Position numbers and translations under genes: made by a program. Under the pieces are notes generated by a model. It was not told the DNA's origin. It made no database searches and was given only the letters and a program-made list of their open reading frames with translations. 64,000 bases of DNA from Alphaproteobacteria bacterium (GTDB lineage: Bacteria > Pseudomonadota > Alphaproteobacteria > Micavibrionales > Micavibrionaceae): positions 5,647 to 69,646 of the forward strand of contig JAKLKY010000004.1 of NCBI GenBank assembly GCA_023150415.1. Reading direction: 5' to 3'. Numbering within the stretch: position 1 is the first letter of the stretch; every line of letters starts with the position of its first letter. Below, one piece after another: positions 7,068 to 60,616 of the stretch.

Positions 7068-7081
7068 TTGATTCAGATCAA
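7068..7081. promoter_or_regulatory. FNR/Anr/Dnr-type box TTGATTCAGATCAA
   Basis: Perfect TTGAT-N4-ATCAA, centred 33.5 bp upstream of the PAS gene ATG (7041). Confidence 0.7.
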
Positions 7082-7104
7082 GGCGAAAAAAGGAGATTGT
7101 TGGC

Positions 7105-7863
7105 CTAAAGCATACTAATAAATTTCATAATGAGCCGGACTGACACATAAAGGATCAGCAGTGCAGTCATCTTCTTGACCATGGACATGTTAATTTGCAC
7201 TGCGCCCAGCCAGGATCCGATCTGTCCGCCGATTAAAACCGCGGGCAGCAAAATCCAGTAAGGGGAAAGAGCCGAGAATGAATCAATATCCTCAATTTTC
7301 AGGCTCTGACCGATAAGGCCTGCCAATGAATTGACCAGAATAAAAAACGCGCATGCTCCGGCGATCTGCTTGGCATTTCCCCAGCGCATAAAATGGAGAA
7401 CGGGCGCCAGAAAAATGCCGCCGCCTATCCCCGTTATTCCGGCCATAAAGCCCAGCAATGTGCCAAAAATAGCGGGCATAAAACTATGCTGTGGTACTTT
7501 CAAGTTTGGAAATGACGGGTCTTCTTTTTCCGGCCATAAAAGCCTGATTCCTGAGAGCAAGAGAGCAAACCCTAAGACTCCGGTGAAAATAACCTCTGGC
7601 ACCGGGATTAACCCACCAACAAAGGAGGCCGGAACTGAAAAAATAATCCACGGCGCAATGCGGGGAAGCCGGATATGCCTCTCTCTTGAGAAATGCCATA
7701 CCCCCCCGGAAACCACCACGATATTACAAATGAGGGAAATAACGGGGATCAGCTGATAATCCGTATCCCCAAGCACTAAAAGCGCGTTATAGGTCGATCC
7801 GCCGCCAAATCCGATACAGGCGTAAAGCAGGGCAGTCATAAAAAACAGAAAAGCCAGAACCAT
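7105..7863 (-). CDS. TauE/SafE (TSUP, DUF81) family anion exporter
   Basis: Polytopic membrane protein with N-terminal ACIGFGGGSTYNALLVL and an internal GITGIGGGIFLAPVL repeat typical of TSUP. Confidence 0.75.
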   Translation of the reverse strand: MVLAFLFFMTALLYACIGFGGGSTYNALLVLGDTDYQLIPVISLICNIVVVSGGVWHFSRERHIRLPRIAPWIIFSVPASFVGGLIPVPEVIFTGVLGFALLLSGIRLLWPEKEDPSFPNLKVPQHSFMPAIFGTLLGFMAGITGIGGGIFLAPVLHFMRWGNAKQIAGACAFFILVNSLAGLIGQSLKIEDIDSFSALSPYWILLPAVLIGGQIGSWLGAVQINMSMVKKMTALLILYVSVRLIMKFISML

Positions 7864-7866
7864 ATA

Positions 7867-8220
7867 TTATGCTTTCTGGCGTGGCCTGCTATCCGCCCTG
7901 AGGTCAACTTGAAGAAAGATATCAAGACCGTTCACACGCGCACAAAGTCCTTCTTTGCTGCGTCCCATATCAATGAGATTTTGTATCTGATCCTTACTTG
8001 TACAGAGCATCAGACAGGATTCATCCTTATCTAAAATGAGTTTGAGCGGGGCTTCTTTAAAATTTTCAAAATACTCTGCCGGATCGGGATCAATGACCAT
8101 CGCAAAATCATTCCCGCCAATGGACACAGCTTTTTCTATCGGCTGACCTGTACTCAGAATATTTAATTCATCTTCTGTGATTTTGAATGTCACGGATTTT
8201 TCGGTGATTTTTACATTCAT
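7867..8220 (-). CDS. Hypothetical protein, translationally coupled to mobA
   Basis: ATG 8220 overlaps the mobA stop as ATGA. No recognisable motif. Confidence 0.5.
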   Translation of the reverse strand: MNVKITEKSVTFKITEDELNILSTGQPIEKAVSIGGNDFAMVIDPDPAEYFENFKEAPLKLILDKDESCLMLCTSKDQIQNLIDMGRSKEGLCARVNGLDIFLQVDLRADSRPRQKA

Positions 8221-8744
8221 GAATTTACAACCTCCGCCCAATCCTGCGGCGTATTGGCATTTTTCATGGAAGAGGAAAAATGCTCCGGCAACGCTACAGG
8301 ATAGATGCCGTAATCATCTAATAAACCTTGAACTGATGTTTTCTCGCTCTGCTGATAAGGCGGAGTCATGAAGGCTGGCAAAGGCCAGTCAATAAAATAC
8401 CCTCCCTCTTTTTGTTGCAAAAGCAGGTGCAGCATATCCGGTTTTAACAAGGGCATATCAACGGGAATAAACAACAATCCCGCATAACTAGAAAGGCGCT
8501 TGATAACTAACTTTATCGCTTCAGCCGGCCCTGTAAATGGCTCCTGATCAGAAAGGCAGTCGTAACCATCAACATCGCCGCTGATAAATATTTCCTTGAT
8601 CCCGGTTGTTTTAAGTATCTCCATCATATGTTCGATGAGCGGCTTCCCTTGGTAATCCAGCAAAGCCTTATTCTGCCCCATGCGGCTTGAGCGCCCTCCT
8701 GCCAAAACGACTCCGGCGATAGCGTTAAAATCAACCATGCGCAT
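8217..8744 (-). CDS. mobA: Molybdenum cofactor guanylyltransferase
   Basis: VVLAGGRSSRMGQNKALLDYQGKPLIEHM is the MobA nucleotide-binding signature. Confidence 0.8.
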   Translation of the reverse strand: MRMVDFNAIAGVVLAGGRSSRMGQNKALLDYQGKPLIEHMMEILKTTGIKEIFISGDVDGYDCLSDQEPFTGPAEAIKLVIKRLSSYAGLLFIPVDMPLLKPDMLHLLLQQKEGGYFIDWPLPAFMTPPYQQSEKTSVQGLLDDYGIYPVALPEHFSSSMKNANTPQDWAEVVNS

Positions 8745-9216
8745 CCTCCTGACAATGGCCGCAACAGGTCATGGAGTGCTCCGCTTCCTCTGACAGGGAA
8801 TGTCCCGGCAACCAGTCGCTCATACCATCCACATAATGCTCTTTTTTCCAGATGGGAGCGCGTTTTTTAATTTCTTCGATGACGTAACGGCACGCTTCAA
8901 AACTCTCGGCGCGGTGCGGGGAACTCACAGCAATGATAATGCTGATCCCGCTGACATCCAGAGTGCCCTGATAGTGCGCAACATAATAGCGTGTATCAGG
9001 CCATAGCCCTTGTGCTTCCTCACAAATTTCATGAAAGGCTTTTTCTGCCAGGGCTTCATGCACATCGTATGTGATGCCTGTTACGCTTTTACCCTCATGC
9101 ATATTGCGCACTGTGCCGATAAACGTATCAATGGCCCCATGCGCCGGATCGATAACACTTTGCATTGCCGTTTCTAGGCTTAAAGGATCAGCGCTGACAA
9201 AAACTTGAATACTCAT
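8731..9216 (-). CDS. moaE: Molybdopterin synthase catalytic subunit MoaE with Cys-rich C-terminal tail
   Basis: GAIDTFIGTVRN...IIAVSSPHRAESFEACRYVIEEIKKRAPIWKKE, plus the extra tail SMTCCGHCQEDAHG. Confidence 0.85.
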   Translation of the reverse strand: MSIQVFVSADPLSLETAMQSVIDPAHGAIDTFIGTVRNMHEGKSVTGITYDVHEALAEKAFHEICEEAQGLWPDTRYYVAHYQGTLDVSGISIIIAVSSPHRAESFEACRYVIEEIKKRAPIWKKEHYVDGMSDWLPGHSLSEEAEHSMTCCGHCQEDAHG

Positions 9217-9219
9217 TCC

Positions 9220-9468
9220 TTAGCCCCCACAGACCGGCGGTAAAATGGAAAGAGGCGTTTCTTCCTGCAGGATATAAGCATTTGGCAAAATTGCATTGTC
9301 ATTGGCAAGAACGGATTCTTCCACCAGTGTTTTATGCTGCTCGCCCAATTGCTGCACCAAGGCTGCCTTAATTTGCTGCACAGAAGATCCGGCATCAACA
9401 GTAACGCAGAGCGTATCGCCAAATTGTCTGAAAACACCAAAACATTTGATAGAGTAATTTATCATCAC
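9220..9468 (-). CDS. moaD: Molybdopterin synthase sulfur carrier MoaD
   Basis: 82-aa ubiquitin-like protein ending in GG (LPPVCGG), immediately upstream of moaE. Confidence 0.8.
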   Translation of the reverse strand: MMINYSIKCFGVFRQFGDTLCVTVDAGSSVQQIKAALVQQLGEQHKTLVEESVLANDNAILPNAYILQEETPLSILPPVCGG

Positions 9469-10511
9469 TACGCTTTCTCATACCCTTGTTTTTTAATCTT
9501 GTTCAGCGCATCACCGATAAAAGGAGCGATAATATCCCAGCATTCCTTGACAGCATTGGGAGAGCCCGGAAAAGCGATGACAAGTGTTGAGCCAACCATG
9601 CCCGCCGTCATACGGGACAGCCATGCGGTATCCGTGAAATGAAGGCTTTCAGTGCGCAGCACATCGCCTAGCCCCTCAAGCATCCGGTCGCTTATTTTTT
9701 GCAAAACGTCAGGAGTCACATCGCGCGGCCCGGGCCCCGTACCGCCAGAAGCAATCAGGATATCCGGCTTATGCTGCGCAGAAATATCTTTAATCGCTGC
9801 AGCGATTTTATCCGCTTCGTCAGGTATGACCTCACAGCATTTGATATCGGCTCCCGCCGCGCTCAAAAGTTCCTTTAAAACGGGACCGGATTTGTCTTCA
9901 TACTCGCCTTTTGATGCGCGGTCGCTCATAACCAGAATGGCGGCGGATTTACCGACGAGATTTTTTTCATCGGGCAATTGCTTGGCCAGCCAGTCAGGTA
10001 TACCATTGGGGTTGATCCAAACACCGCTTTTTCCGCCGGTTTTCACAAGCAGGTGCACAGCCTCAATTGAAAGGTTAGAATCGGTACCTTTGGTTAAATC
10101 CCAGATTGTCAGAAGCGCAGCATTTGCACCCGCCAAGGCTTCCATCTCGACACCTGTTTTCGCAAAAGCAACGGCCTGTGCATAGACTGTAATGCTGTGA
10201 TCCTCCTCATTCATGGCACAATGGATGGTGACCTGATCCAGCGGCAATGTGTGGCACATAGGGATAAGATCCGGTGTTTTTTTTGCGCCTGTGATGCCTG
10301 CCGCTTCAGCGAGTGCCAAAACATTGCCTTTAGGCAACTTGCCATTTTTGATCGCTTCAAAGGCTTCCGCGTTCATATGAATAGTGCCGCAAGCTACAGC
10401 GCGCCTGCGCGTTGGTCTTTTGCGTCCGACATCAATCATTTTGAAATTGGGCTGCGCCGCCGTGGGAAAGGCAATAACTTCTTCTGGTTTTGACATGGTT
10501 TTATCCTCCAA
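9468..10511 (-). CDS. moaC: Bifunctional MoaC (cPMP synthase) / MogA-MoaB domain protein
   Basis: N-half has KTPDLIPMCHTLPLDQV...TGVEMEALAGANAALLTIWDLTK. C-half has ILVMSDRASKGEYEDKSGP...ASGGTGPGPRDVTPD. Confidence 0.85.
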   Translation of the reverse strand: MEDKTMSKPEEVIAFPTAAQPNFKMIDVGRKRPTRRRAVACGTIHMNAEAFEAIKNGKLPKGNVLALAEAAGITGAKKTPDLIPMCHTLPLDQVTIHCAMNEEDHSITVYAQAVAFAKTGVEMEALAGANAALLTIWDLTKGTDSNLSIEAVHLLVKTGGKSGVWINPNGIPDWLAKQLPDEKNLVGKSAAILVMSDRASKGEYEDKSGPVLKELLSAAGADIKCCEVIPDEADKIAAAIKDISAQHKPDILIASGGTGPGPRDVTPDVLQKISDRMLEGLGDVLRTESLHFTDTAWLSRMTAGMVGSTLVIAFPGSPNAVKECWDIIAPFIGDALNKIKKQGYEKA

Positions 10512-11490: not shown

Positions 11491-11625
11491 ATCAATAGAC
11501 TCCTTTCCAAACACGGGAGATCATGGCGTTTCCACACATAACCCCGGCCAATACGCCATATCCATTTAATAAGGACTTAGGACATAAAGGCTTCAGAGCG
11601 GCCATGCGCAAATGAACATGGCGAA
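11491..11625 (-). ncRNA. Candidate Moco riboswitch in the moaA leader
   Basis: Minus-strand leader contains GCTCTGAAGCC, the helix ATGGCG...GGAAAC...CGCCAT, then CTCCCGTG...GGAAAGGAG overlapping the RBS. These resemble the CUCCGAGCC / CCCG / AAAGGAG blocks of the Moco motif as I recall them. Not folded or scored. Confidence 0.35.
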
Positions 11626-11666
11626 TCTTCATATTTTCATTATGATGGAATTTAAAATGAAGAGAC

Positions 11667-11680
11667 TTGATCTGAATCAA
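11667..11680. promoter_or_regulatory. FNR-type box TTGATCTGAATCAA
   Basis: Perfect palindrome in the moaA / nnrU divergent gap. It lies ~180 bp upstream of moaA ATG and only 12 bp from nnrU ATG. Confidence 0.7.
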
Positions 11681-11691
11681 GAGGGATAAAA

Positions 11692-12381
11692 ATGCTGGAA
11701 TTCTGGGTATCGCTTGTTATTTTTATGGCTTCGCATTCTGTTATAGCCCGATCGGGGCTTCGCGGCCTCATAGTTCAAAAATGGGGAGAGAAAACCTATT
11801 TGACCCTTTATTCTTTGCTCAGCCTGATATTGCTCGCATGGCTGGTCATTGCGGCGCAGAACGCGCCTCGTATCCAGCTATGGCCCTGGCTTTATGAACT
11901 TTATTGGATACCTAACATTTTTATGCCCTTGGCATGCATCTTGCTGGTTTCGGGTTTCATTGTACCCAACCCCTTATCCATAGCGGCAAAAAACAAAGGA
12001 TTTGACCCAGAAAGGCCGGGATTTATTGTCACTCTGACCCGTCATCCGATTTTGTGGGGCTTTTTTCTCTGGTCTGTTTCTCATGTTGTCCCAAACGGTG
12101 AATATCCGCTGATTGTCATGTTTGGAATATTTGCTGGATTTTCGTTAATAGGACTGAAGATAGTTGATCGGAAGTGCAAAAAGGAATTGGGAATGGAGCA
12201 ATGGGACATACTGGCAAAAAACACACATGCTGTTCTTTTTGCTTCCCGCTCTTTATGGTCAGGACAATTCCAATTCACAAGATATGACATTACGGGAATT
12301 ATTTCAGGTTTATTTGTGTACTTTTTACTTTATAGTCTTCACGAGACTTTATTTGGAATAGGCCCAATGCCTCCCATGTAG
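11692..12381 (+). CDS. nnrU: NnrU family membrane protein
   Basis: Polytopic membrane protein with N-terminal LVIFMASHSVIARSGLRG, like NnrU. Sits in an NO-response neighbourhood. Confidence 0.6.
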   Translation: MLEFWVSLVIFMASHSVIARSGLRGLIVQKWGEKTYLTLYSLLSLILLAWLVIAAQNAPRIQLWPWLYELYWIPNIFMPLACILLVSGFIVPNPLSIAAKNKGFDPERPGFIVTLTRHPILWGFFLWSVSHVVPNGEYPLIVMFGIFAGFSLIGLKIVDRKCKKELGMEQWDILAKNTHAVLFASRSLWSGQFQFTRYDITGIISGLFVYFLLYSLHETLFGIGPMPPM

Positions 12382-12403
12382 TATTTAAAATGAGTGCAGA
12401 GCC

Positions 12404-13105
12404 ATGAACATTGTAGAAACCATCAAAAAAAGCACCCTGTTTCACAGTGTCGATATGCAGACAATCGAAGCATTGACTAAAGAATGTCATAAAAAAACAT
12501 TTGCCAAAGGGCGTGATATCTTCGCCATGGGTGACAAGGCTGATGCCTTTTTTATTATTCTTGAAGGTTGGGTCAAGCTCTATCGTATCTCCAAGGATGG
12601 TGAAGAAGCGATCATCCATGTCTTTGGCCCCGGCGAGTCTTTTGCTGAAGCGGCTGTTTTTAACGACACAAAAACCTATCCTGTGAATGCCCATGCATTG
12701 GATGAAGTCATTCTTGTCGAAATACCCCGCAGTTTTTTTATCCAGAAAATCGAGGAAGACAGCCAATTCGCTTTGCGTATGCTCGGCGCCATCGCCGCAC
12801 GACAGCATTACCTCGTCCAGCAAATAGAGCAGGTAACAACCCGCACTGCTCCACAGCGGATCGGCGCGTTTTTAATACGTTTTTGCAAGAAAAACAAGCA
12901 GGCCGAAGGCGAATGGGTTGTCCATTTACCTTACGATAAATCAGTGATTTCAACCCGCATGAACATCAAGCCCGAAACTTTTTCCCGCGCCCTGGCAAAA
13001 CTGGAACCTTTTGGCGTTCATGTAGAAAATAAGAAAATTCTGATTACAGACATGGAAGCTCTGGCTGAATTTTGTGACATCTCACCAAACGAAATACCTT
13101 GTTAG
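12404..13105 (+). CDS. Crp/Fnr family regulator, Dnr/NnrR-like (no N-terminal Cys cluster)
   Basis: cNMP-type beta-barrel plus HTH with the ETFSR recognition motif (equivalent to FNR E-xx-SR that reads TTGAT). No Cys-x2-Cys-x5-Cys at the N-terminus. Confidence 0.75.
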   Translation: MNIVETIKKSTLFHSVDMQTIEALTKECHKKTFAKGRDIFAMGDKADAFFIILEGWVKLYRISKDGEEAIIHVFGPGESFAEAAVFNDTKTYPVNAHALDEVILVEIPRSFFIQKIEEDSQFALRMLGAIAARQHYLVQQIEQVTTRTAPQRIGAFLIRFCKKNKQAEGEWVVHLPYDKSVISTRMNIKPETFSRALAKLEPFGVHVENKKILITDMEALAEFCDISPNEIPC

Positions 13106-15595: not shown

Positions 15596-15628
15596 GCGCC
15601 CATCCTACGAATATACGTTCAGGCGACC

Positions 15629-15642
15629 TTGATCTGAATCAA
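15629..15642. promoter_or_regulatory. FNR-type box TTGATCTGAATCAA
   Basis: Perfect palindrome in the 53-bp gap between ppiC stop and hemN start, centred ~41 bp from hemN ATG. Confidence 0.7.
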
Positions 15643-15648
15643 ATGATG

Positions 15649-17976: not shown

Positions 17977-17999
17977 GATCTTCGTCCTTTCTTAATTGA

Positions 18000-23423: not shown

Positions 23424-23437
23424 TTGATTCAGATCAA
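23424..23437. promoter_or_regulatory. FNR-type box TTGATTCAGATCAA
   Basis: Perfect palindrome between narK stop (23451) and narG ATG (23359), centred 71.5 bp from narG ATG. Confidence 0.7.
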
Positions 23438-23450
23438 GAGGCCTATTTAT

Positions 23451-26195: not shown

Positions 26196-26209
26196 TTGAT
26201 TCAGATCAA
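26196..26209. promoter_or_regulatory. FNR-type box TTGATTCAGATCAA
   Basis: Perfect palindrome in the narK / fnr-like divergent gap, 112 bp from narK ATG and 43.5 bp from the regulator ATG (26246). Confidence 0.7.
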
Positions 26210-26245
26210 GATGCTGTCAACAAAGAACAATGATTGGTAATAAAG

Positions 26246-26986
26246 ATGCAGTTGCCTGCAAATTTTAATGAACAAAAAAAGCCGCAGCTTTTTGAGGGAT
26301 TATCCGAAAACAGTCTTCAGACGTTACTTCAACGTTCTGTCATGCACGATTATGACAGTGGCAAAGTTCTTGTGCAGCAGGGCGATAGTCCGGAATGTAT
26401 TTTTCTTGTGCTGGACGGATCGTTAAAAACAACCCGCATAAACGAAGATGGCGGCGAAGCCATAATACGCATGCTTGAAGCTGGCGACACATGTATGGAA
26501 GCCGTTCTTTTTATGGGGATTCCTTCGCCGATCAACGTGCAAGCCATGAGCGCCGCCAAAATTCTTAAAATTCCGGATTCAGTTGTCAAAAAACATGTTC
26601 TTGAGGATCCTGCTTTTGCCGTTAATCTTTTGCGTATTGTCTCGCGCCATTATAAAAATGCTATGCATCAGATTGAAGCTATGAATATTAAATCACCGCT
26701 GCAGCGCGTGGGGTACTATTTTCTGCTCAAGCATATTGAACAAGGGCACGAAAATCTGGACTTTAAACTTCCCTTTAAAAAACAGGTCGTAGCGAATTAT
26801 TTAGGCATGACGCCAGAAACCTTCTCCAGAACACTCAAGCAAATGAAAGATATCGGCATCAAAGTGGAAGAAGATACAATCAGAATGCGGGATTCATTTG
26901 CGCTCTGCCATTTCTGTGATTCTGATACCGCTTCTTTATGCTCAAGGCACGATCAGCCCGAATGTGAAAAATGCCCGCTGCACTAA
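26246..26986 (+). CDS. Crp/Fnr family regulator with a C-terminal Cys cluster
   Basis: cNMP-type barrel, HTH with ETFSR, and tail FALCHFCDSDTASLCSRHDQPECEKCPLH (C-x2-C-x7-C-x8-C-x2-C). ATG 26246 preferred over TTG 26234. Confidence 0.8.
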   Translation: MQLPANFNEQKKPQLFEGLSENSLQTLLQRSVMHDYDSGKVLVQQGDSPECIFLVLDGSLKTTRINEDGGEAIIRMLEAGDTCMEAVLFMGIPSPINVQAMSAAKILKIPDSVVKKHVLEDPAFAVNLLRIVSRHYKNAMHQIEAMNIKSPLQRVGYYFLLKHIEQGHENLDFKLPFKKQVVANYLGMTPETFSRTLKQMKDIGIKVEEDTIRMRDSFALCHFCDSDTASLCSRHDQPECEKCPLH

Positions 26987-26999
26987 AACTTCCTCATAT

Positions 27000-28476: not shown

Positions 28477-28490
28477 TTGATCTGGATCAA
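28477..28490. promoter_or_regulatory. FNR-type box TTGATCTGGATCAA
   Basis: Perfect palindrome in the moeA / ubiT divergent gap, centred 41.5 bp from ubiT ATG 28525. Confidence 0.7.
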
Positions 28491-28524
28491 TCCCCAAAGC
28501 ATACCCAGCGCTTATTGTCTGGTT

Positions 28525-29070
28525 ATGATGACAGCGCAGGCCGATTACAGATCAGAAACTGAAAAGCAGGAGTACAGGTATTTACCAAGGCTACTGCGCC
28601 TTATACTTGCGCCTGTGCCACTTTTTGCCATCCAACCTGTTTTACACAAAATCGTTCATCACATAACACAGAAACGACCGGAGTTATTTGACCGTATCGG
28701 GCCACATAAAGACAAGCTTTTCTTGATTGATCCGGTAAATTTGCCCTTTGCCTTTGCATTAAGAGCTAATCCGGACAATCTTTCCTTTTGTGCATACCGG
28801 CGGCGCAATCTGCCTCAGGTCGAAGCCCGCATTGCAGGAACGTTCTTAACATTGCTGGATATGGTGGATGGACAGCTGGATGGGGATGCCCTGTTTTTCA
28901 CACGCGAGCTTGTGGTGGAAGGTGATACCGAGGCCGTTGTCTGCCTGCGCAATGCAATTGATGACGTAGAGGGAAGTATCGCCGAGGACACTGCGAATTT
29001 ATTCGGATTTGCCGGACGAAATGCTTTGAAGATTTTAAGAAAGGCGAGGAATCATGGTCGAAAACACTGA
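28525..29070 (+). CDS. ubiT: SCP2-domain ubiquinone-pathway accessory protein UbiT (YhbT-like)
   Basis: SCP2-like ...ARIAGTFLTLLDMVDGQLDGDALFFTRELVVEGDTEAVVCLRNAID, directly upstream of ubiU/ubiV. ORF-track start 28477 lies inside the FNR box, so ATG 28525 is used. Confidence 0.6.
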   Translation: MMTAQADYRSETEKQEYRYLPRLLRLILAPVPLFAIQPVLHKIVHHITQKRPELFDRIGPHKDKLFLIDPVNLPFAFALRANPDNLSFCAYRRRNLPQVEARIAGTFLTLLDMVDGQLDGDALFFTRELVVEGDTEAVVCLRNAIDDVEGSIAEDTANLFGFAGRNALKILRKARNHGRKH

Positions 29071-30067
29071 GCCTGTGGGGGAACTTGTCTGTCCCGCAGG
29101 AACGCCAGCATCCCTGCGCACTGCCGTGGATGCTGGCGCGGATGCTGTCTATTGCGGGTTTCAGAATGCAACCAACGCCCGCAATTTCCCGGGACTGAAC
29201 TTTACACTTCCAGAGATGGAAAAAGCTGTCGTCTATGCCCATGAACGCGGGACAAAAGTGTTGCTGGCGGCCAATACATTTCCGCCTGCCGGCAAGATAC
29301 AACTCTGGAAGGACGCTGTTGATTCAGCTGTTCGCATGGGAATTGATGCCATTATCGTGGCTGATATCGGCGTTGCCGGTTACATCAAGAAAAATCATCC
29401 TGATCAGCGCATCCACTTATCCGTTCAGGCCGGTGCGCCTTCTGTTGAAGCCATTAAATATTATTGCGAGGAATTTGGCGTCAGGCGTGTTGTCTTGCCG
29501 CGTATATTGACGATCCCTGAAATCAAATCACTGAAAAAAGAGATCCCTTGCGAAATTGAATGTTTTATTTTCGGCAATCACGGCCTTATGGCGGAAGGAC
29601 GGTGCAGCCTGACAAATTATGTTACCGGATTATCCACCAATATGGACGGGGTGTGTTCCCCCGCCGGCGATGTGAAATATGAGGAAGATGCACAGCGCAA
29701 TCTGACGACCAAACTCGGCGCCTTCACCATTGATTGCTTTTCCTGCACGCAAAACCCCGGATATCCAACCATTTGCAAAGGGCGCTACCGCGCACCGCAT
29801 AGGCCGGATGGTTATTATGCCTTTGAAGAACCGATCAGCCTTAACCTGGCGCGCTTGCTGCCGGAACTTATCAAGGCGGGCGTTCATGCTTTCAAGATTG
29901 AGGGACGCCAACGCTCCCGCGCCTATGTGCGTGAGGTCGTATCATCATGGCGCAAGGCCATAGATGATGTGATGGCGGGACAGGACGTGGAGCTGGCGCA
30001 TCTATTGTCCCTGACCGAAGGTCATAAACAAACGCAGGGCGCTTATGAAACAAAGAGATGGAGATAA
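29054..30067 (+). CDS. ubiU: U32-family O2-independent ubiquinone hydroxylase subunit UbiU (YhbU-like)
   Basis: ELVCPAGTPASLRTAVDAGADAVYCGFQNATNARNFPGLNFT... aligns closely by eye with E. coli YhbU (ELLCPAGNLPALKAAIENGADAVYIGLKDDTNARHFAGLNFT). Cys motif EGRCSLTNY...GVCSP. Confidence 0.8.
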   Translation: MVENTEPVGELVCPAGTPASLRTAVDAGADAVYCGFQNATNARNFPGLNFTLPEMEKAVVYAHERGTKVLLAANTFPPAGKIQLWKDAVDSAVRMGIDAIIVADIGVAGYIKKNHPDQRIHLSVQAGAPSVEAIKYYCEEFGVRRVVLPRILTIPEIKSLKKEIPCEIECFIFGNHGLMAEGRCSLTNYVTGLSTNMDGVCSPAGDVKYEEDAQRNLTTKLGAFTIDCFSCTQNPGYPTICKGRYRAPHRPDGYYAFEEPISLNLARLLPELIKAGVHAFKIEGRQRSRAYVREVVSSWRKAIDDVMAGQDVELAHLLSLTEGHKQTQGAYETKRWR

Positions 30068-30071
30068 GCCA

Positions 30072-30974
30072 ATGATGGCGCAATTGACAATGGGACCAAT
30101 TTTATTCCACTGGCCTGCTGAGAAAAAACGTGACTTTTATTTTCGTATTGCCGATGAAGCGCCGGTTGAAACGGTCTATCTGGGCGAGGTTATCTGCTCC
30201 AAGCGGACACCGTTTTTTGAACAGCATTATAGCGAGGTTGCCGAGCGCCTTATGGCGGGCGGGAAAAAAGTCGTATTTTGCTCTCTGGCTGAAATCATGA
30301 TCCCCCGTGAACGCAAAATGACCGAAGGATTATGCGAACTTGAAGATTTTGAGGTTGAAGCCAATGATGCCGCCGCACTCTATCATTTGCGCGGGAAGCC
30401 ACACCGGATTGGCCAGTATTTTAATGTCTATAACGAAGACGTGATGGAACATCTGGCCTCTGGTGGGGCAACCCACTTTACTCTGCCTGCGGAATTACCG
30501 GCGGAGTCTATATCCGCTCTGGGACAAAAAGCCGATGATATCGGGGTCGGTCTTGAGGTGCAGGTTTTCGGACGCGTTGGCCTTGCGCTTTCGGCACGGT
30601 GTTATCATGCGCGTGCTCATGGCCGGGTTAAAGATAATTGCCAGTTTGTCTGTGAAGAAGATCCGGACGGCATGATATTAAAAACGCTGGAAGAAAAAGA
30701 TTTTTTATGCGTCAACGGTGTACAGACATTATCTTACACTTACCTGAACCTTGTTCATGAATTGCATGAAATGGCAGATATGGGCGTAAAGTCCTTCCGC
30801 CTTTCCCCGCACACGCATGATATGAAGCAGGTTGCTTGCCTGTTTAGAAACGTGCTTGATAAAAAGATCGATGCCGGTGAAGCTGAAGCACAATTAAAAG
30901 AACTAATACCAAACGTGCCGTTTTCAAATGGCTTTTATCACAAAACTCTCGGCTATTCCTGGAAGGCGGCGTGA
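30072..30974 (+). CDS. ubiV: U32-family UbiV (YhbV-like)
   Basis: MMAQLTMGPILFHWPAEKKRDFY resembles the YhbV N-terminus (MKYSLGPVLWYWPKETLEEFY). Cys motif SARCYHARAHGRVKDNCQFVC. GGAG RBS lies before ATG 30072. Confidence 0.75.
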   Translation: MMAQLTMGPILFHWPAEKKRDFYFRIADEAPVETVYLGEVICSKRTPFFEQHYSEVAERLMAGGKKVVFCSLAEIMIPRERKMTEGLCELEDFEVEANDAAALYHLRGKPHRIGQYFNVYNEDVMEHLASGGATHFTLPAELPAESISALGQKADDIGVGLEVQVFGRVGLALSARCYHARAHGRVKDNCQFVCEEDPDGMILKTLEEKDFLCVNGVQTLSYTYLNLVHELHEMADMGVKSFRLSPHTHDMKQVACLFRNVLDKKIDAGEAEAQLKELIPNVPFSNGFYHKTLGYSWKAA

Positions 30975-32014: not shown

Positions 32015-32031
32015 TATTTTTTCCTTATCGT

Positions 32032-32730: not shown

Positions 32731-32734
32731 TACT

Positions 32735-33376: not shown

Positions 33377-33436
33377 GCAGTCTTCCTCTCTGTTTTCAGG
33401 AAAACTCTATTATCAGAAAAAAATATTCTGATCGAC

Positions 33437-33450
33437 TTGATCTAGATCAA
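33437..33450. promoter_or_regulatory. FNR-type box TTGATCTAGATCAA
   Basis: Perfect palindrome in the divergent gap, 67.5 bp from the BioH-like ATG (33376) and 147.5 bp from nrdD ATG. Confidence 0.7.
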
Positions 33451-33489
33451 ATTTGAAGCCCTTTATTTAGTATACCGTTTAATAAGAAC

Positions 33490-33505
33490 ACACAATATGT
33501 AGTGT
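33490..33505. promoter_or_regulatory. Candidate NrdR box ACACAATATGTAGTGT
   Basis: Matches the 16-bp NrdR palindrome consensus (acaCwAtATaTwGtgt) at all but one position, 86 bp upstream of nrdD. Part of the longer palindrome AACACACAATATGTAGTGTGTT. No second box seen. Confidence 0.5.
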
Positions 33506-33590
33506 GTTTTGAAATTCCTCCTCGTTTTCTCCTTCCGAGAAGCAAGGTTCCAAAAATTCTTATGAAACAAACATGTAAAGGAGAAAAACC

Positions 33591-35633
33591 ATGTCCGACG
33601 CCTCTGCTGCCAGATCCAAAACCACCGATTCTGTAGAGAAAAAATCAGTGATCGCTTTTCCGGCGACTCACCCCGCCAACCCTGAAACAGATCAGATCGT
33701 TACGCTTTTTGGCGGAACATCTGTGGATTGCTCCGAGGCGATCAGCGAGTATATTTCCGGATCTGACTGGAGAATCAAGGCCAATGCCAATACCGGGTAC
33801 TCCAATGCCGGCCTGATCAATAATGTCGCCGGAAAAGTGATCGCCAATTTCTGGCTGGATGAAGTTTACTCCCCCGAAGAGGGACAGGCGCACCGCAATG
33901 GCGATGTTCACATCCACGATCTGGACTGCCTGACCGGATATTGCGCGGGCTGGTCACTTCGTGCCCTGCTCAATGACGGATTTAATGGCGTTGGCGGACG
34001 TGTTTCCTCTCGCCCCCCACGTCATTTCCGTGAGGCTTTAGGGCAAATGTCCAATTTCCTTGGCATCCTGCAATCCGAATGGGCGGGCGCGCAGGCGTTC
34101 AGCTCCTTTGATACCTATCTTGCGCCATACGTCTTTTATGATCAACTGAGCTTTAAAGAAGTTAAAAAGGCGATTCGTCAGTTTGTTTATAATCTGAACG
34201 TGCCCGCACGCTGGGGACAATCACCCTTCACCAATATCACGCTGGATATTACAGTGCCCGAAGATCTGCAGAATCAGTTCCCAACATATAGCAACCTGCA
34301 TCTCTTTAAAGGGATCGAGAACGATGAATTGCTGTTAAAGGCACAGCAGCGTGACATGGGTTTGCGCAGTCTTGAAGACACCACATTTAAACATTTTGCC
34401 CCTGAAATGGAGATGATCAATATCGCTTATTACGAGGTGATGACCGAAGGCGATTCAACTGGGCAGCCTTTTACCTTCCCGATTCCAACCGTCAATATCA
34501 CCGAGGATTTTGACTGGGACAGCAAAGTGGCAGCGGCTATTTTTGAAAATACGGCAAAAGTCGGTTCCTCTTATTTCCAAAATTTCGTTGGTTCCCAATG
34601 GATGAAAAATGAAAAAGGGGAGCGCGTACGCAATCCGGAAGCCTATTCCCCCGGCGCGGTACGTTCCATGTGCTGCCGCCTGCAACTGGATTTGCGCGAG
34701 CTACTTAAGCGCGGGAACGGCCTATTTGGCTCAGCAGAGATGACCGGCTCTATCGGCGTTGTGACTCTGAACATGGCGCGCCTGGGCTACCGCTTCAAAG
34801 GCGACTTCAAGGGCTTGATGGCGGAAGTTGACCGCCTGATGGATATAGGCAAATCCACATTGGAGAAAAAACGGGTCTTCGCACAGAAAATGTATGATCG
34901 CGGGCTCTACCCCTATACATCCCGCTACCTGCCGTTTTTCCGCAATCACTTCTCCACCATCGGTGTCAACGGTATGAATGAGATGATCCGTAATTTCACC
35001 GATGACGAGCATGACATTACAGACGAGCAAGGCATTCAGATGAGTATTGATATTCTGGATCATATGCGCACAAAACTCCTTGGTTATCAGGAAGAAACTG
35101 GCAATCTCTATAATCTGGAGGCTACGCCGGCGGAAGGAACGACATACCGTTTTGCCAAGGAAGACAAGAAGCGCTTCCCCGATATCCTGCAGGCAGGCTT
35201 TGGTGAAAACATATACTACACCAATTCATCCCAAATTCCTGCCGATCACACAGAAGACCCGTTTGAAGCTCTGGAGCTGCAAAACCGTCTGCAGTGCAAA
35301 TATACGGGCGGTACGGTGTTGCATCTTTACATGAATGAGAAGCTGAGCAGCGCCGAAGCCTGTAAGGGGTTCGTCAAAAAAGTGATTGGCAATTACCAGC
35401 TTCCCTATATCACCGTGACGCCTGTTTTCTCGGTTTGTGATACGCATGGCTATCTCAACGGAGAGCAGCCAGAATGCCCGACCTGCGGTGAAAACACCAA
35501 AGTGTGGACACGTGTCATGGGCTATTTCCGTCCCGTGGACAGCTTTAACAAAGGCAAACAGGGCGAACACCGTGAACGCAAGCACTTCAAGGAAGACTGG
35601 GTTGATACCGGTAGTCTTTTCACTGGCGTGTAA
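33591..35633 (+). CDS. nrdD: Anaerobic ribonucleoside-triphosphate reductase (class III)
   Basis: C-terminal Zn site CDTHGYLNGEQPECPTCG and glycyl-radical motif TRVMGYFRPV. 680 aa. Confidence 0.93.
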   Translation: MSDASAARSKTTDSVEKKSVIAFPATHPANPETDQIVTLFGGTSVDCSEAISEYISGSDWRIKANANTGYSNAGLINNVAGKVIANFWLDEVYSPEEGQAHRNGDVHIHDLDCLTGYCAGWSLRALLNDGFNGVGGRVSSRPPRHFREALGQMSNFLGILQSEWAGAQAFSSFDTYLAPYVFYDQLSFKEVKKAIRQFVYNLNVPARWGQSPFTNITLDITVPEDLQNQFPTYSNLHLFKGIENDELLLKAQQRDMGLRSLEDTTFKHFAPEMEMINIAYYEVMTEGDSTGQPFTFPIPTVNITEDFDWDSKVAAAIFENTAKVGSSYFQNFVGSQWMKNEKGERVRNPEAYSPGAVRSMCCRLQLDLRELLKRGNGLFGSAEMTGSIGVVTLNMARLGYRFKGDFKGLMAEVDRLMDIGKSTLEKKRVFAQKMYDRGLYPYTSRYLPFFRNHFSTIGVNGMNEMIRNFTDDEHDITDEQGIQMSIDILDHMRTKLLGYQEETGNLYNLEATPAEGTTYRFAKEDKKRFPDILQAGFGENIYYTNSSQIPADHTEDPFEALELQNRLQCKYTGGTVLHLYMNEKLSSAEACKGFVKKVIGNYQLPYITVTPVFSVCDTHGYLNGEQPECPTCGENTKVWTRVMGYFRPVDSFNKGKQGEHRERKHFKEDWVDTGSLFTGV

Positions 35634-35635
35634 TC

Positions 35636-36382
35636 ATGGCTCTTGCGCTTGCCAATAAACCGGAAGCCAGGCCCCCTGTCAAAAAACAGGGGGCGCTTCC
35701 CATATACTCTGTCACCCCCTTCACGATGCTCGATTTTCCGGGACAGACGGCCTGTATTGTCTGGTTTTCCGGATGCAACATGCGCTGTCCTTACTGTCAC
35801 AATCCTCAAATCGTCAAAGGCAAGGGGCGAGGCGATGTGGGTCAGGTTTTCGATTTCCTGAAAAAACGCGCAGGACTTCTGGATGGAGTCGTTCTCTCCG
35901 GCGGTGAGGCCTCGGCCTATCCCGGGTTGCCCGATTTTATCAAACAGGTAAAAAAACTTGGTTATGCCGTCAAACTTGATACGAACGGTCTAAGACCCGA
36001 TATCATTGACGATTTCTTGCGTCAGGGATTTTTGAATTACATTGCGCTGGATTACAAAGCCCCGCCCCATAAATTCAAGAAAGTCACGGGCGTTGATAAA
36101 TACAACGAATTCACCAAAACGCTTGATCTTTTATGCGCGCAAAAAGCCGTGCCATTTGAGGTGCGCACGACTGTTCACACAAATCTGATGGATGAAGATG
36201 ATGTCAATGCCATTATCCATGATCTTGAAAATCGTGGTTACCAAGGCCGGCACGCCATACAGAATTTCACCCATAGCGATGATCGCCCGACATTGGGCTT
36301 TATGCGTGAACAAGAGCGCGTCTTGAATACGGACGCTCTCTATGCTCCTCCAAATTTCACCTTGGAATTTCGTAACTTTTAA
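35636..36382 (+). CDS. nrdG: Anaerobic RNR activating protein (radical SAM)
   Basis: FSGCNMRCPYCHNP motif, immediately after nrdD. Confidence 0.88.
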   Translation: MALALANKPEARPPVKKQGALPIYSVTPFTMLDFPGQTACIVWFSGCNMRCPYCHNPQIVKGKGRGDVGQVFDFLKKRAGLLDGVVLSGGEASAYPGLPDFIKQVKKLGYAVKLDTNGLRPDIIDDFLRQGFLNYIALDYKAPPHKFKKVTGVDKYNEFTKTLDLLCAQKAVPFEVRTTVHTNLMDEDDVNAIIHDLENRGYQGRHAIQNFTHSDDRPTLGFMREQERVLNTDALYAPPNFTLEFRNF

Positions 36383-36395
36383 AAAACCTGAGTTT

Positions 36396-36794
36396 TTAAG
36401 AAACTGTATCACCAAGCGTATGTTGGTTGAGGGTGTTTATAAATTCATTGCTGGCATCAAACAGATAATGCTTCAGATTACAGGTCTGCGTCACACGGCA
36501 GGTATTTGTTACGGCATCAAAGCATTCCACCATGAACATGTTTGGCTCCAGCTGCTTTACAATATCGCCAAGCCGCAGGTCTTGTGCCCCTTCGGCAAGC
36601 CGGATGCCGCCGCCCTTACCCTTGCTGGTTTCGATATATCCAAGCTGTGACAGGCGGTGAACAATTTTAACCAGATGGTTGCGGGAAATTTTATAATATT
36701 CGGAAATTTCCTTCACGCTGGATAGGTCATCAGGGCGCGCAGCCAGATACATCAGGCAACGCAGGCCGTAATCGGTAAATCGTGTTAACTGCAT
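36396..36794 (-). CDS. nsrR: Rrf2-family NO-sensing repressor NsrR
   Basis: MQLTRFTDYGLRCLMYLA...ISRNHLVKIVHRLSQLGYIETSKGKGGGIRLA, with three C-terminal Cys (ECFD...NTCRVTQTCNL). Divergent from hmp. Confidence 0.85.
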   Translation of the reverse strand: MQLTRFTDYGLRCLMYLAARPDDLSSVKEISEYYKISRNHLVKIVHRLSQLGYIETSKGKGGGIRLAEGAQDLRLGDIVKQLEPNMFMVECFDAVTNTCRVTQTCNLKHYLFDASNEFINTLNQHTLGDTVS

Positions 36795-36854
36795 AATGCT
36801 GTACTCATCATAAAATTTATCGTGGACAGGGTTGCATAATTAGCCGCGATCTAT

Positions 36855-36877
36855 AATATACATACCAAATACATATT
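36855..36877. promoter_or_regulatory. Candidate NsrR operator AATATACATACCAAATACATATT
   Basis: Imperfect inverted repeat. The right half AAATACATATT fits the AAATGCATNTT half-site and the left half is weaker. It overlaps a TATAAT-like -10 in the nsrR/hmp gap. Confidence 0.4.
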
Positions 36878-36894
36878 AAGAAAGGCAATTCCCC

Positions 36895-38130
36895 ATGCTG
36901 TCCCAACAAACCATCGATATCGTCAAATCCACTGCGCCTATTTTGAATGAACATGGCGAAACGCTGACCAAGCATTTTTACAAACGCATGTTCAGCCACA
37001 ACCCGGAAGTAGCACCGTTTTTTAATCCGGCCAATCAGGCGGGCGGTACGCAGCAACGCGCACTCGCGGCGGCAATTTGCGCGTATGCGGCGAATATCGA
37101 CAATCTGGAAGTGCTGGGCGGTGCGGTGGAACTGATCGCCCATAAACATGCCTCCCTGATGATCAAGCCGGAGCATTATCCAATTGTCGGTGAAAACCTG
37201 CTTGCTTCTATCCGTGAGGTGCTCGGCGAAGGTGCAACCGATGATGTGATCAACGCATGGGGTGAAGCGTATGGCTTTCTGGCCGATATCCTGATTGGGC
37301 GGGAAAAGCAGCTTTACAGTGAGAATGCGGACAAGACCGGAGGCTGGGAGGGCTTCCGTAACTTTGTGATAGATCGCAAAGAAAAGGAAAGCAGCATTAT
37401 TACGTCCTTTTACCTAAAGCCCAAAGACGGCGGCGCTTTGCCGTCCTATATGGCTGGGCAGTATATTACGGTGCGGATGCCTACAAAGGATGGTTCAACC
37501 ACCATGCGTAATTACAGCCTGTCCGACAAACCCGGTCAGGACTATTTCCGCATCAGTGTAAAACGCGAAGTTGGCGCGAAAGCTGATACGCCGAAGGGCT
37601 ATGTGTCCAACACACTTCATGATGCAATCAATGTCGGTGATACGCTTGAAATTGGGCCGCCATGCGGCGAATTCTTCCTGAACACGAATGACAAGCACGA
37701 ACGCCCGCTGGTTTTGCTGGCGGCGGGGGTTGGCATTACCCCGATCCTCAGCATTTTGCAAACCGCGTTGGAGGTCATGCCGCATCGTGAAATTATTCTG
37801 ATCCATGGCTGCCTGAACAGGGATGTGCAGCCGTTTAAGGACACGATTGATACGCTGGCGGCAAAACATGAAAACCTGACCGCTCACTACCGTTACAGTG
37901 AGCCAACGGGCGGTGAAGATAGCGCCGGTGATAATTGCTCCGGCGGATTTGTTGATGCAGTACTGATTGAAAGCCTCGTACCCTCACGCCATGCGGATTA
38001 TTATTTCTGCGGCCCGAAGCCTTTCATGGTGAATATTTATCACGAGCTTCTGGCTTGGGGCATTCCTGGTAATCAGGTGCATTTTGAATTCTTCGGTCCG
38101 CGGGAAGAGCTAAAGCGGAAAGCCGCCTGA
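36895..38130 (+). CDS. hmp: Flavohaemoglobin (NO dioxygenase)
   Basis: Globin N-domain MLSQQTIDIVKSTAPILNEHGETLTKHFYKRMF, then FAD/NAD reductase domain (RNYSLSD, LLAAGVGITP). Confidence 0.93.
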   Translation: MLSQQTIDIVKSTAPILNEHGETLTKHFYKRMFSHNPEVAPFFNPANQAGGTQQRALAAAICAYAANIDNLEVLGGAVELIAHKHASLMIKPEHYPIVGENLLASIREVLGEGATDDVINAWGEAYGFLADILIGREKQLYSENADKTGGWEGFRNFVIDRKEKESSIITSFYLKPKDGGALPSYMAGQYITVRMPTKDGSTTMRNYSLSDKPGQDYFRISVKREVGAKADTPKGYVSNTLHDAINVGDTLEIGPPCGEFFLNTNDKHERPLVLLAAGVGITPILSILQTALEVMPHREIILIHGCLNRDVQPFKDTIDTLAAKHENLTAHYRYSEPTGGEDSAGDNCSGGFVDAVLIESLVPSRHADYYFCGPKPFMVNIYHELLAWGIPGNQVHFEFFGPREELKRKAA

Positions 38131-38157
38131 TCAAAGCCTGCGGAAAGGACAAAAATT

Positions 38158-38487
38158 ATGGCATTACCACATGCAAAACCGGGAGAGAGTGTCGATCTGA
38201 ACCCTTTGGGAGAGGCACTGAAAGATGCTAGAACGCAAGCCATCATCAAGACTGATAGTTTTGAGGCCATTCGTCTTGTCCTTCAGGCAGGCACAGAAAT
38301 TCCGTCACATAAAGTCCCTGGAGAAATCACCCTGCACTGTCTTGAAGGGTGCGTATCACTTGGGCTGACAGGATCCGTCATAAATCTGCGAGCCGGTGAA
38401 TGGCTGTATTTAAATGGCGGAGAACCCCATTCCGTAAAAGCGGAAGAAGATTCTTCGCTTTTGCTCACAATTATTCTCAAGACATAA
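38158..38487 (+). CDS. Small cupin-domain protein
   Basis: 109 aa with GTEIPSHKVPGEITLHCLEG...GEWLYLNGGEPHSV, a cupin two-motif layout. Co-directional with hmp. Confidence 0.55.
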   Translation: MALPHAKPGESVDLNPLGEALKDARTQAIIKTDSFEAIRLVLQAGTEIPSHKVPGEITLHCLEGCVSLGLTGSVINLRAGEWLYLNGGEPHSVKAEEDSSLLLTIILKT

Positions 38488-38492
38488 GAAAC

Positions 38493-38506
38493 TTGATCTG
38501 GGTCAA
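38493..38506. promoter_or_regulatory. FNR-type box TTGATCTGGGTCAA (one mismatch)
   Basis: 13/14 to the palindrome, centred 40.5 bp upstream of ribB ATG 38540. Confidence 0.6.
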
Positions 38507-38539
38507 GGCCTTGAAGCGCATTTTTGTTTTTGATAACGC

Positions 38540-39166
38540 ATGAAAACAAAGCTGGCATCCGTGAAAGATATTATAGAGGATCTGCGTGAAAAACGGATGG
38601 TCATACTGGTCGATGACGAATGCCGTGAAAACGAAGGCGATCTTGTAATTCCGGCCTCCATCGCTACGCCGGAGCATATCAATTTTATGGCCACACACGG
38701 GCGTGGACTGATCTGTCTGGCGATGAGCGCCGATAATATTGATCGCCTCGGCCTGCCCTTGATGACAGAAAATAATGATTGCAGGCTCGGCACGGCCTTT
38801 ACTGTCTCCATAGACGCAAGGGACAAGACCACAACAGGCATATCTGTTCATGATCGCTCTCACACTGTTCGATTGGCCGCCGACCCCCAAAGCAGCCACA
38901 GCGATTTTCGTATCCCCGGTCATATCTTCCCCTTGCGCGCCCGCGAAGGCGGCGTTTTAGAGCGCGCAGGTCATACAGAGGCGTCTGTAGAATTAGCAAG
39001 TTTGGCGGACTTTGGTGAGGCCGCTGTTATATGCGAAATCATGAAAGAAGACGGCACAATGGCGCGGCTGCCTGATTTGGTAAGGTTCGCAGAAAAACAC
39101 AACCTTCATATTGCCAGCATCAGTGACGTTATTGATTACATCCATCAGAAAAGGAACGCCGCATGA
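38540..39166 (+). CDS. ribB: 3,4-dihydroxy-2-butanone-4-phosphate synthase
   Basis: VILVDDECRENEGDLVIPA...HGRGLICLAM...RAGHTEASVELA is the DHBP synthase signature. Confidence 0.88.
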   Translation: MKTKLASVKDIIEDLREKRMVILVDDECRENEGDLVIPASIATPEHINFMATHGRGLICLAMSADNIDRLGLPLMTENNDCRLGTAFTVSIDARDKTTTGISVHDRSHTVRLAADPQSSHSDFRIPGHIFPLRAREGGVLERAGHTEASVELASLADFGEAAVICEIMKEDGTMARLPDLVRFAEKHNLHIASISDVIDYIHQKRNAA

Positions 39167-39600
39167 GCAAGATCCTTATCATTGAGGCCTGCTTTTACCA
39201 GGACATTGCCATCCTGTTACGGGAAGGCGCCATCGACGTGCTGAATAAGCAAGGGCATGAGTACGAGATTGAAACAGTTCCAGGGGTGCTGGAAATCCCA
39301 GCGGCATTAAATTTCTTTATCTCCGGCAAGAAAAATTACGATGCCTATGTCGTTCTGGGCTGCGTTATTCGCGGCGAAACTTCCCATTACGATATTGTCT
39401 GCAACGAAAGTGCGCGGGGCGTTTATGATTTGGTTCTAAAACATAATCTGGCTTTGGGGAACAGCATACTCACCGTTGAAAACAAAGATCAGGCTATTGC
39501 ACGCGCAGACCCGCAAAAGAAAAACAAAGGGGGCGATGCCGCTAAAGCCGCCCTGCATATGTTGGGACTTCGCCAGAAAATTTTGATTGGTACCGCTTGA
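39163..39600 (+). CDS. ribH: 6,7-dimethyl-8-ribityllumazine synthase
   Basis: VPGVLEIPAAL...VVLGCVIRGETSHYDIVCNE...ALGNSILTVEN. Start overlaps the ribB stop. Confidence 0.85.
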   Translation: MSKILIIEACFYQDIAILLREGAIDVLNKQGHEYEIETVPGVLEIPAALNFFISGKKNYDAYVVLGCVIRGETSHYDIVCNESARGVYDLVLKHNLALGNSILTVENKDQAIARADPQKKNKGGDAAKAALHMLGLRQKILIGTA

Positions 39601-39610
39601 TCCAGATCAA
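39597..39610. promoter_or_regulatory. FNR-type box TTGATCCAGATCAA
   Basis: Perfect palindrome overlapping the ribH stop, centred 62.5 bp upstream of ytfE ATG (39666). That ATG has an AGAGGAG RBS. Confidence 0.7.

Positions 39611-60539: not shown

Positions 60540-60616
<77 letters not shown>

Follow-up and report, generated by a model that had tools for sequence, protein, structure and literature searches.

Co-inheritance of FNR-type boxes and two CRP/FNR-family regulators on a genomic island of a Micavibrio-like alphaproteobacterium

Introduction

Cultured Micavibrio species are described as aerobic predators, and the question raised here is how a set of genes for nitrate-based life without oxygen is controlled in one of their uncultured relatives. 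The locus lies in a 64,000-nucleotide (nt) stretch of DNA (the window; all positions below refer to it unless a contig or locus is named) from an alphaproteobacterium of the family Micavibrionaceae (GenBank assembly GCA_023150415.1, contig JAKLKY010000004.1, positions 5,647 to 69,646 of the forward strand). The genome comprises 1.92 Mb in 96 contigs and is 92.5% complete. The window contains a genomic island on which nine near-identical copies of the inverted repeat TTGAT-N4-ATCAA (the boxes) stand beside genes for nitrate respiration and related functions. An initial annotation, made from the DNA of the window, proposed that these boxes join the whole cargo of the island into one regulon.

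The repeat is the site of FNR, Anr and Dnr proteins, for which position -41.5 is optimal, and single boxes acting in both directions have been documented in Dinoroseobacter shibae (PMC5398030). As set out below, it is highly likely that the nine boxes are functional operators of a class II, activator-dependent regulon, an estimate that covers operator function and activation together. The island genes behind them are very probably co-induced through two regulators borne by the island, here called regA and regB, which would be a well supported and conventional form of control.

Number and placement of the boxes

All nine boxes of the initial annotation were recovered, eight as exact matches and one, at 38493 (TTGATCTGGGTCAA), with a single mismatch. 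The exact matches lie between 7068 and 39610, and dinucleotide shuffles gave an expectation of 0.11; the highest count in a shuffle was two, and 0 of 100 shuffles reached the observed eight. Sites with at most one mismatch numbered 13 against 4.46 expected, and the 38493 box, judged on mismatch count alone, could be a chance occurrence. Its intergenic position, its C/G flanks and its spacer of two pyrimidines followed by two purines (YYRR), all shared with the other boxes, argue that it is not, as does the perfect box TTGATCTGGATCAA at the orthologous site of a 93%-identical island copy (G091:C5:4395). The base preceding the box is C in eight of the nine cases and the base following it is G in six, A in two and T in one, in line with the flanks first described for most of the boxes.

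Non-coding DNA makes up 4.1% (1496 nt) of the region 5184-41627 when curated gene starts are used. Eight boxes lie entirely inside this fraction and the ninth (39597) overlaps the final 4 nt of ribH, so that every box is indeed intergenic or at a gene end. The genes annotated downstream of the boxes agree with the families found for them here. The regulon is narrower than the whole cargo as originally proposed, since nsrR/hmp-cupin, moeB, the integrase and cus/copA are without a box.

It is scarcely credible that the boxes arose as palindromes by chance, or are leftovers of a mobile element or dispersed repeat, and have no regulatory role. One 14-mer, in one or the other orientation, accounts for five of the eight exact boxes, as such an origin might produce, but the shuffles, the confinement of the boxes to the small non-coding fraction and their retention at orthologous gaps amid diverging DNA (see below) all speak against it. 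A longer repeat or mobile element as the source was rejected, the sequence beyond the box and 1 nt on either side being unrelated between sites.

The whole genome holds 16 exact boxes, eight of which fall within this 32.5-kb stretch (1.7% of the genome length). The claim that the motif is missing outside the cargo thus holds for the window, where no exact box was found in the integrase, cus/copA, backbone or host-flank parts, and fails genome-wide, where eight further exact boxes occur. A 16-mer weight matrix was built from the nine sites and the genome was scanned with it, as the initial annotation had suggested; the nine sites scored 22.8-27.5 and the next-best genome site 16.3, values obtained with a matrix trained on the same sites. 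No additional site scored 12 or more on the same contig. Reliance was placed instead on tests that involve no training, namely counts of the exact pattern, the comparison of YYRR boxes over 151 genomes and the offset of the -10 element.

Promoter geometry

The spacing between box and promoter was analysed in 69 boxes (those of the window and of diverged loci, near-identical copies being excluded), giving 138 oriented flanks. A hexamer was taken as -10-like when at least four of its six bases matched TATAAT, position 2 being A and position 6 T. In 29 cases such a hexamer began at an offset of exactly 23 nt from the box, compared with 4.2±2.0 at the other offsets from 1 to 49. A hexamer at this distance, spanning -12 to -7, would place the box centre at -41.5, the class II position of FNR; the assignment draws on this spacing and on the conserved extended -10 element at narK. 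In the window, seven of the eight exact boxes have a -10-like hexamer at 22-23 nt.

Box 1 (TTGATTCAGATCAA, 7068..7081, exact) lies upstream of the minus-strand pair encoding a PAS protein and a methyl-accepting chemotaxis protein (MCP), with CATAAT 23 nt past the box at 7045-7040. The predicted transcription start (~7033) makes ATG 7011 a more likely start of the PAS gene than ATG 7041. Box 3 (TTGATCTGAATCAA, 15629..15642, exact) lies upstream of hemN-nnrS (minus) and is followed at 22 nt by TAGGAT; the hemN ATG (15595) coincides with the predicted transcription start, a leaderless geometry. Box 4 (TTGATTCAGATCAA, 23424..23437, exact) occupies the narK-narG gap, upstream of the narGHJI operon, which ends in a peptidyl-prolyl isomerase (PPIase) gene. 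Box 9 (TTGATCCAGATCAA, 39597..39610, exact) lies upstream of ytfE-porin and overlaps the ribH stop codon; GAGAAT stands 22 nt past it, and the ytfE start was moved to ATG 39666, which is preceded by a GGAGA Shine-Dalgarno sequence. Box 8 (TTGATCTGGGTCAA, 38493..38506, one mismatch) lies upstream of ribBH.

Three further boxes separate divergent genes, and a single palindromic box would drive transcription in both directions at each. Box 5 (TTGATTCAGATCAA, 26196..26209, exact) lies between narK (minus) and regB (plus), with the hexamer AATACT and a TG extension on the narK side. Box 6 (TTGATCTGGATCAA, 28477..28490, exact) lies between moeA (minus) and ubiTUV (plus) and has -10-like hexamers 23 nt off on each side, TATAGT at 28454-28449 toward moeA and TATTGT at 28513-28518 toward ubiT, whose ATG (28525) coincides with the predicted transcription start. 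Box 7 (TTGATCTAGATCAA, 33437..33450, exact), a perfect 14-nt palindrome, lies between an operon of hydrolase, bioC-like and thiO-like genes (minus) and nrdDG (plus), with GATAAT 23 nt off toward the minus-strand operon at 33414-33409.

The start codons of hemN (15595), regB (26246), ubiT (28525) and ribB (38540) all fall 34-37 nt past a box. The position of the ATG at the predicted transcription start suggests that the hemN, ubiT and regB messages are leaderless. Open reading frame starts inside boxes were rejected for ubiT (28477) and ytfE (39597) in favour of 28525 and 39666, as was 7041 as the PAS start in favour of 7011.

Box 2 (TTGATCTGAATCAA, 11667..11680, exact) lies between moaA (minus) and nnrU-regA (plus). 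Toward moaA, CATAAT is found 23 nt past the box (11644-11639), and the leader contains a molybdenum cofactor (Moco) riboswitch (Rfam RF01055, 11484..11612, minus strand, 49.2 bits against a gathering score of 36) that begins 20 nt downstream of the predicted transcription start (~11632). The riboswitch would stack metabolite control behind an FNR-type moaA promoter. Toward nnrU, the box centre is 18.5 nt from the ATG, and in eight of 14 lineages it lies 18.5-25.5 nt before the start codon of nnrU or regA (loci L036, L037, L040, L041 and L044-L047). This is a repressing position, and the box probably acts as an activator site for moaA and as a repressor site for the regulator operon; by covering the nnrU-regA promoter or 5' end it could provide negative feedback on regA. 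The regB ATG, 43.5 nt from its box in the window, is compatible with activation.

Could the boxes then be chiefly repressor operators, silencing the cargo in air, for example? FNR-family proteins do repress from start-proximal positions, and the geometry at nnrU-regA is of this kind. Repression by Dnr paralogues has also been reported (PMC5398030). The sharp -10 peak 23 nt past the box is nevertheless the geometry of a class II activator, whereas repressor sites would be expected to overlap the -10 element or the start, and the conserved extended -10 of narK has the same spacing. A mainly repressive role is accordingly considered very improbable, and activation at most of the promoters is preferred.

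Conservation in related genomes

A search with regB returned 28 loci (54-99% identity), all in metagenome-assembled genomes labelled Micavibrio, Alphaproteobacteria or similar. These loci share the gene order narGHJI-narK-regB-moeA-(ubiTUV)-(hydrolase module)-nrdDG and have perfect boxes in the same gaps. When the narK/regB gap was aligned over 22 diverged loci, the only conserved blocks were the box and the extended -10 element (TGcAATACT, 26176-26168, minus strand). A perfect box was present in the gap between moaA and regA (or nnrU) in 14 of 15 diverged genomes, and box 4 was found in the same gap in 19 of 26 related loci, counting those whose DNA spans the gap (L018 and L030 do not). The box upstream of nrdD is kept in several diverged loci. 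Where the regulators of the clusters share only 54-71% identity, the same gaps often retain the same TCAG/CTGA spacer.

The initial annotation had attributed the uniformity of the boxes to recent assembly or strong selection. Because the boxes have stayed in orthologous gaps amid intergenic DNA that has diverged, selection is the part of this explanation that is retained: the uniformity is old and maintained by purifying selection, not the product of recent assembly.

Among 151 sampled genomes of the family, regB was found in 33, distributed over 21 of 60 genera. Five other genera possess copies 93-99% identical to that of the window. Nucleotide identity in these five genomes is 88-94% for the cargo and only 66-70% for the host flank past the tRNA. 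The PAS-MCP module (5123-7142) with its own box is missing from the copies in G059, G040 and G091 and present in those of G128 and G007, and the hydrolase module is missing from one island copy. Modules are thus gained and lost together with their boxes.

One genome, G091, carries two versions of the cluster (contigs C5 and C9, regB 93% and 63% identical) and 18 YYRR boxes. Contamination of this genome is put at 8%, and two strains may have contributed the two versions.

Regulators

Three proteins of the CRP/FNR family were found above the Pfam cut-off in the genome: regA, regB and a chromosomal paralogue on contig C25 (L001 1012-1773). All three have cNMP_binding and HTH_Crp_2 domains. The ETFSR recognition helix ascribed to both island regulators is present in each as PETFSR, is invariant across regB orthologues and recurs in the chromosomal paralogue; assignment of sites to regulators by recognition helix was rejected for this reason.

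The N-terminal cysteine (Cys) cluster of FNR (C-x2-C-x5-C plus a central Cys) is absent from all three paralogues. Neither island regulator is therefore an FNR in the strict sense, and both fall below the NCBIfam cut-offs for Fnr, FixK and FnrL, the best match (FtrB) also being below cut-off. regB (26246..26986, plus) has a C-terminal motif C-x2-C-x7-C-x7-C-x2-C that is kept in nearly all orthologues. The cluster of Bacillus subtilis Fnr is also C-terminal, a possible parallel. The solved structures closest to regB are those of a Crp-family protein (3H3Z) and of Pseudomonas aeruginosa DNR (3DKW). The regB C-terminus (26897-26983) contains an almost invariant LCHF-CD-x6-C-x7-C-x2-C, and a conserved Cys is also found in GDTCMEAV. 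regA (12404..13105, plus) has no conserved Cys cluster and adjoins genes for NnrU (PF07298) and NnrS (PF05940). It fits what defines the Dnr/NnrR type, a CRP/FNR fold without a Cys cluster linked to nitric oxide (NO) response genes.

The chromosomal paralogue ends with C-x2-C-x5-C, and its orthologues occur in 72 of the 151 family genomes independently of the cluster. A PAS paralogue adjoins this regulator on contig C25 (L001 332-895).

An operator subclass co-inherited with regA and regB

The spacer distinguishes the island boxes from others. It is of the YYRR form in all eight exact boxes of the window and in 50 of 61 boxes of diverged clusters, but in none of the eight exact boxes elsewhere in the same genome, with a chance frequency of 1 in 16. 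C stands at position -1 and G at position +15 in 72% of the boxes, and the extended form cTTGAT-YYRR-ATCAAg was not found among the eight exact boxes outside the island.

The same spacer follows the regulators across the family. Genomes with regA or regB (n=34) contain on average 4.8 YYRR boxes and those without (n=117) 0.59, which corresponds to 40% and 7.0% of all boxes, respectively, whereas boxes with other spacers are about equally frequent (7.2 and 7.9 per genome). regA and regB co-occur, ~13 kb apart, in 23 family genomes. Genomes that lack the cluster nevertheless have ~8 exact boxes each, compared with 0-3 per genome for a reversed-pattern control, so that a family-wide FNR-type regulon also exists. 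The class of boxes specific to the cluster is thus only the YYRR subclass. The proposal that the cargo brings its own regulators and operators agrees with these data: the island encodes both regulators, and operator type and regulators are inherited together.

Three of the eight exact boxes outside the island lie in long coding frames (secD-like, pseudouridine-synthase-like and ammonium-transporter-like genes), two are ambiguous and three are intergenic, one lying upstream of an OmpW-like gene and past a gene for a FixI-like ATPase, one between PhaZ-like and CobD-like genes and one at mdh; these genes were named by eye. The boxes at the OmpW-like gene (G000 C68:2012) and at the PhaZ-like/CobD-like genes (C25:15852) have A/T-only spacers (AAAA and ATTT, respectively) and are possible targets of the chromosomal paralogue.

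These results bear on whether the island boxes are read mainly by the chromosomal paralogue, the island being plugged into an existing FNR regulon of the host. That paralogue has the same PETFSR helix, its orthologues are widespread in the family, and the boxes of cluster-free genomes point to a host regulon of the FNR type. The YYRR subclass, however, tracks regA and regB while other-spacer boxes do not, and some cluster-bearing genomes, among them G001, G014, G021 and G022, have no orthologue of the paralogue at E<=1e-40, G001 having regA, regB and six YYRR boxes. The near-identity of the island regulators in five genera whose flanks have diverged also favours self-contained control. Control mainly by the host paralogue is for these reasons thought unlikely, and regA and regB would be the likeliest readers of the boxes; some cross-talk may occur.

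A more far-reaching proposal is that the island is an insulated regulatory module, in which regA and regB prefer cTTGAT-YYRR-ATCAAg and so differ from the chromosomal paralogue, whose operators would have other, often A/T-rich, spacers. We regard this as tentative and rather less likely to be right than wrong. If it were true, the anaerobic kit could move between predatory Micavibrio-like genera and work at once, with the low-oxygen regulon of the host neither needed nor disturbed, and new modules such as PAS-MCP could join simply by carrying a box.

Proposed mechanism

Our preferred model is that dimeric CRP/FNR-family activators occupy the boxes, centred at -41.5 at most promoters, and that a signal-activated regulator bound there would recruit RNA polymerase to an activator-dependent promoter with a -10 element. 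The predicted signals are O2 or NO for regB, sensed through an Fe-S cluster held by the conserved C-terminal Cys motif, and NO for regA, which would be a sensor of the Dnr/NnrR type since it has no cluster and has nnrU and nnrS as neighbours. About ten transcription units would be co-induced for life without oxygen. They cover nitrate uptake and reduction, molybdenum cofactor synthesis, O2-independent synthesis of haem, ubiquinone and deoxyribonucleotides, Fe-S cluster repair and the PAS-MCP taxis pair. Binding, the pairing of paralogues with sites and induction are all predictions from DNA and protein sequence.

Several observations weigh against this model. The narG promoter (box 4, the only exact box of the window of which this is true) and the ribB promoter have no filter-passing -10 hexamer at the canonical spacing; at ribB the box-to-ATG distance equals that of hemN, ubiT and regB, but no convincing -10 is seen, and box 8 is the weakest of the nine. 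The -10 test is passed, in one direction or both, by just 37 of the 69 boxes. With an identical recognition helix in three paralogues, sequence cannot assign sites to regulators. The family genomes are related, so that the Mann-Whitney test applied to the YYRR comparison overstates their independence, although the direction of the effect is clear. Finally, an Anr/Dnr box at nrdD of P. aeruginosa gave no measurable effect of Anr, Dnr or NarL (PMC4860495), and a box alone is therefore no proof of regulation.

Comparison with known systems

The box sequence and position, the target genes and the presence of multiple paralogues are already known from Escherichia coli FNR, Pseudomonas Anr/Dnr and Dinoroseobacter FnrL/Dnr. 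What is new is the host lineage, the transfer of a self-regulated kit between genera, the regulator type with C-terminal Cys residues and the co-inheritance of an operator subclass.

Class II FNR promoters of E. coli share with the island the inverted repeat, the -41.5 spacing predicted here and the E-xx-SR helix, and the target classes nar, narK, moa, nrdDG and hemN are common to both. Unlike E. coli FNR, the island regulators have no N-terminal Cys cluster and their putative operators show a strongly biased YYRR spacer with C/G flanks; several targets also have the ATG at the predicted transcription start. In Paracoccus, where the three paralogues FnrP, NNR and NarR split the O2, NO and nitrate/nitrite signals, narR is divergent from narK and the shared gap contains a box, as in the narK/regB arrangement. 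NarR is without a Cys cluster; that of regB is conserved and C-terminal.

P. aeruginosa has two CRP/FNR paralogues, Anr and Dnr, with an indistinguishable box (PMC5398030) and with hemN and nar among the targets; hemN is listed in the core Anr regulon of Pseudomonas (PMC6588701). One of the two is an Fe-S O2 sensor and the other a cluster-free NO sensor, a division that regB and regA may share, and DNR is among the closest solved relatives of regB. The island differs in holding both regulators together with their targets and in the C-terminal location of the regB Cys motif. Pseudomonas also uses NarXL, and no NarXL-type nitrate sensor was among the families found in the island by family searches.

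D. shibae is another alphaproteobacterium, in which FnrL, DnrD, DnrE and DnrF act together, bidirectional boxes lie between divergent genes at -39.5/-41.5, one box stands beside a regulator gene, and activation and repression proceed from the same kind of site (PMC5398030). Its boxes are degenerate (TTAAC-N4-GTCAA and similar), in contrast to the almost uniformly perfect boxes of the island; its FnrL has the classical Fe-S arrangement, and its system is not known to be an island transferable between genera.

For regulation in general, the locus is confirmatory, a class II FNR-type regulon described from sequence, whose operators are unusually perfect and for which the comparative support is strong. 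The spacer-defined operator subclass inherited with the island regulators goes beyond the textbook and offers a test case of how CRP/FNR paralogues with identical recognition helices might separate their regulons. For the lineage, it indicates that some uncultured Micavibrio relatives have acquired a complete, self-regulated, nitrate-based anaerobic kit (nitrate respiration, O2-independent cofactor and deoxyribonucleotide synthesis, and NO defence) that is nearly unchanged between genera.

The island and its gene map

The element is a genuine integrated and horizontally spread genomic island, as judged from its integrase, the tRNA-associated repeat, the atypical G+C content, the patchy distribution and a cargo identity far above that of the flanks. 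One end is a partial tRNA-Met copy (811..857, minus strand; 47 nt of the 3' part, att-like, 87% identical to 60538-60584) that adjoins the integrase gene; the other is the intact tRNA-Met (60540..60616, minus strand; ARAGORN and Rfam), 59.7 kb away, which puts the integrase at the tRNA-distal end. These ends bound the full island of ~60 kb, including cus/copA and the defence-like AbiE, ApeA and DUF5677 genes. The G+C content is about 47-50% in the island, compared with 52.8% in the genome and 55-60% past the tRNA-Met. Nothing specific came to light in literature searches on Micavibrio and nitrate reductase or FNR.

The gene map was drawn from family searches of the window proteins. The integrase (1078-2283) and moeB (3771-4847) are followed by the genes for the PAS protein and a sensor-less MCP (7011-5184, minus), by moaA-moaCB-(moaD)-moaE-mobA with a gene of unknown function and a TauE-like gene (11514-7105, minus), and by nnrU-regA (11692-13105, plus). 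Next come hemN-nnrS (15595-13102, minus), narGHJI-PPIase (23359-15649, minus), narK (26090-23451, minus), regB (26246-26986, plus), moeA (28274-27000, minus) and ubiTUV (28525-30974, plus). The hydrolase, BioC-like and ThiO-like genes (33376-30953, minus) are divergent from nrdDG (33591-36382, plus), beyond which lie nsrR, divergent from hmp-cupin (36396-38487), ribBH (38540-39600, plus) and ytfE-porin (39666-41627, plus). copA and cusCBA (41788-49906) and, at about 50-60 kb, genes for an AAA_25 protein, DUF5677, ApeA and AbiEi/AbiEii complete the island.

The NarK protein (23451-26090, minus) is an 879-residue fusion of two NarK-type transporters of the major facilitator superfamily, for which NCBIfam gives two matched stretches. 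No FNR box is present in the nsrR-hmp gap (36795-36894); a TATAAT there precedes an imperfect, A/T-rich repeat, ATATACATACCAAATACATATT, a candidate operator of NsrR.

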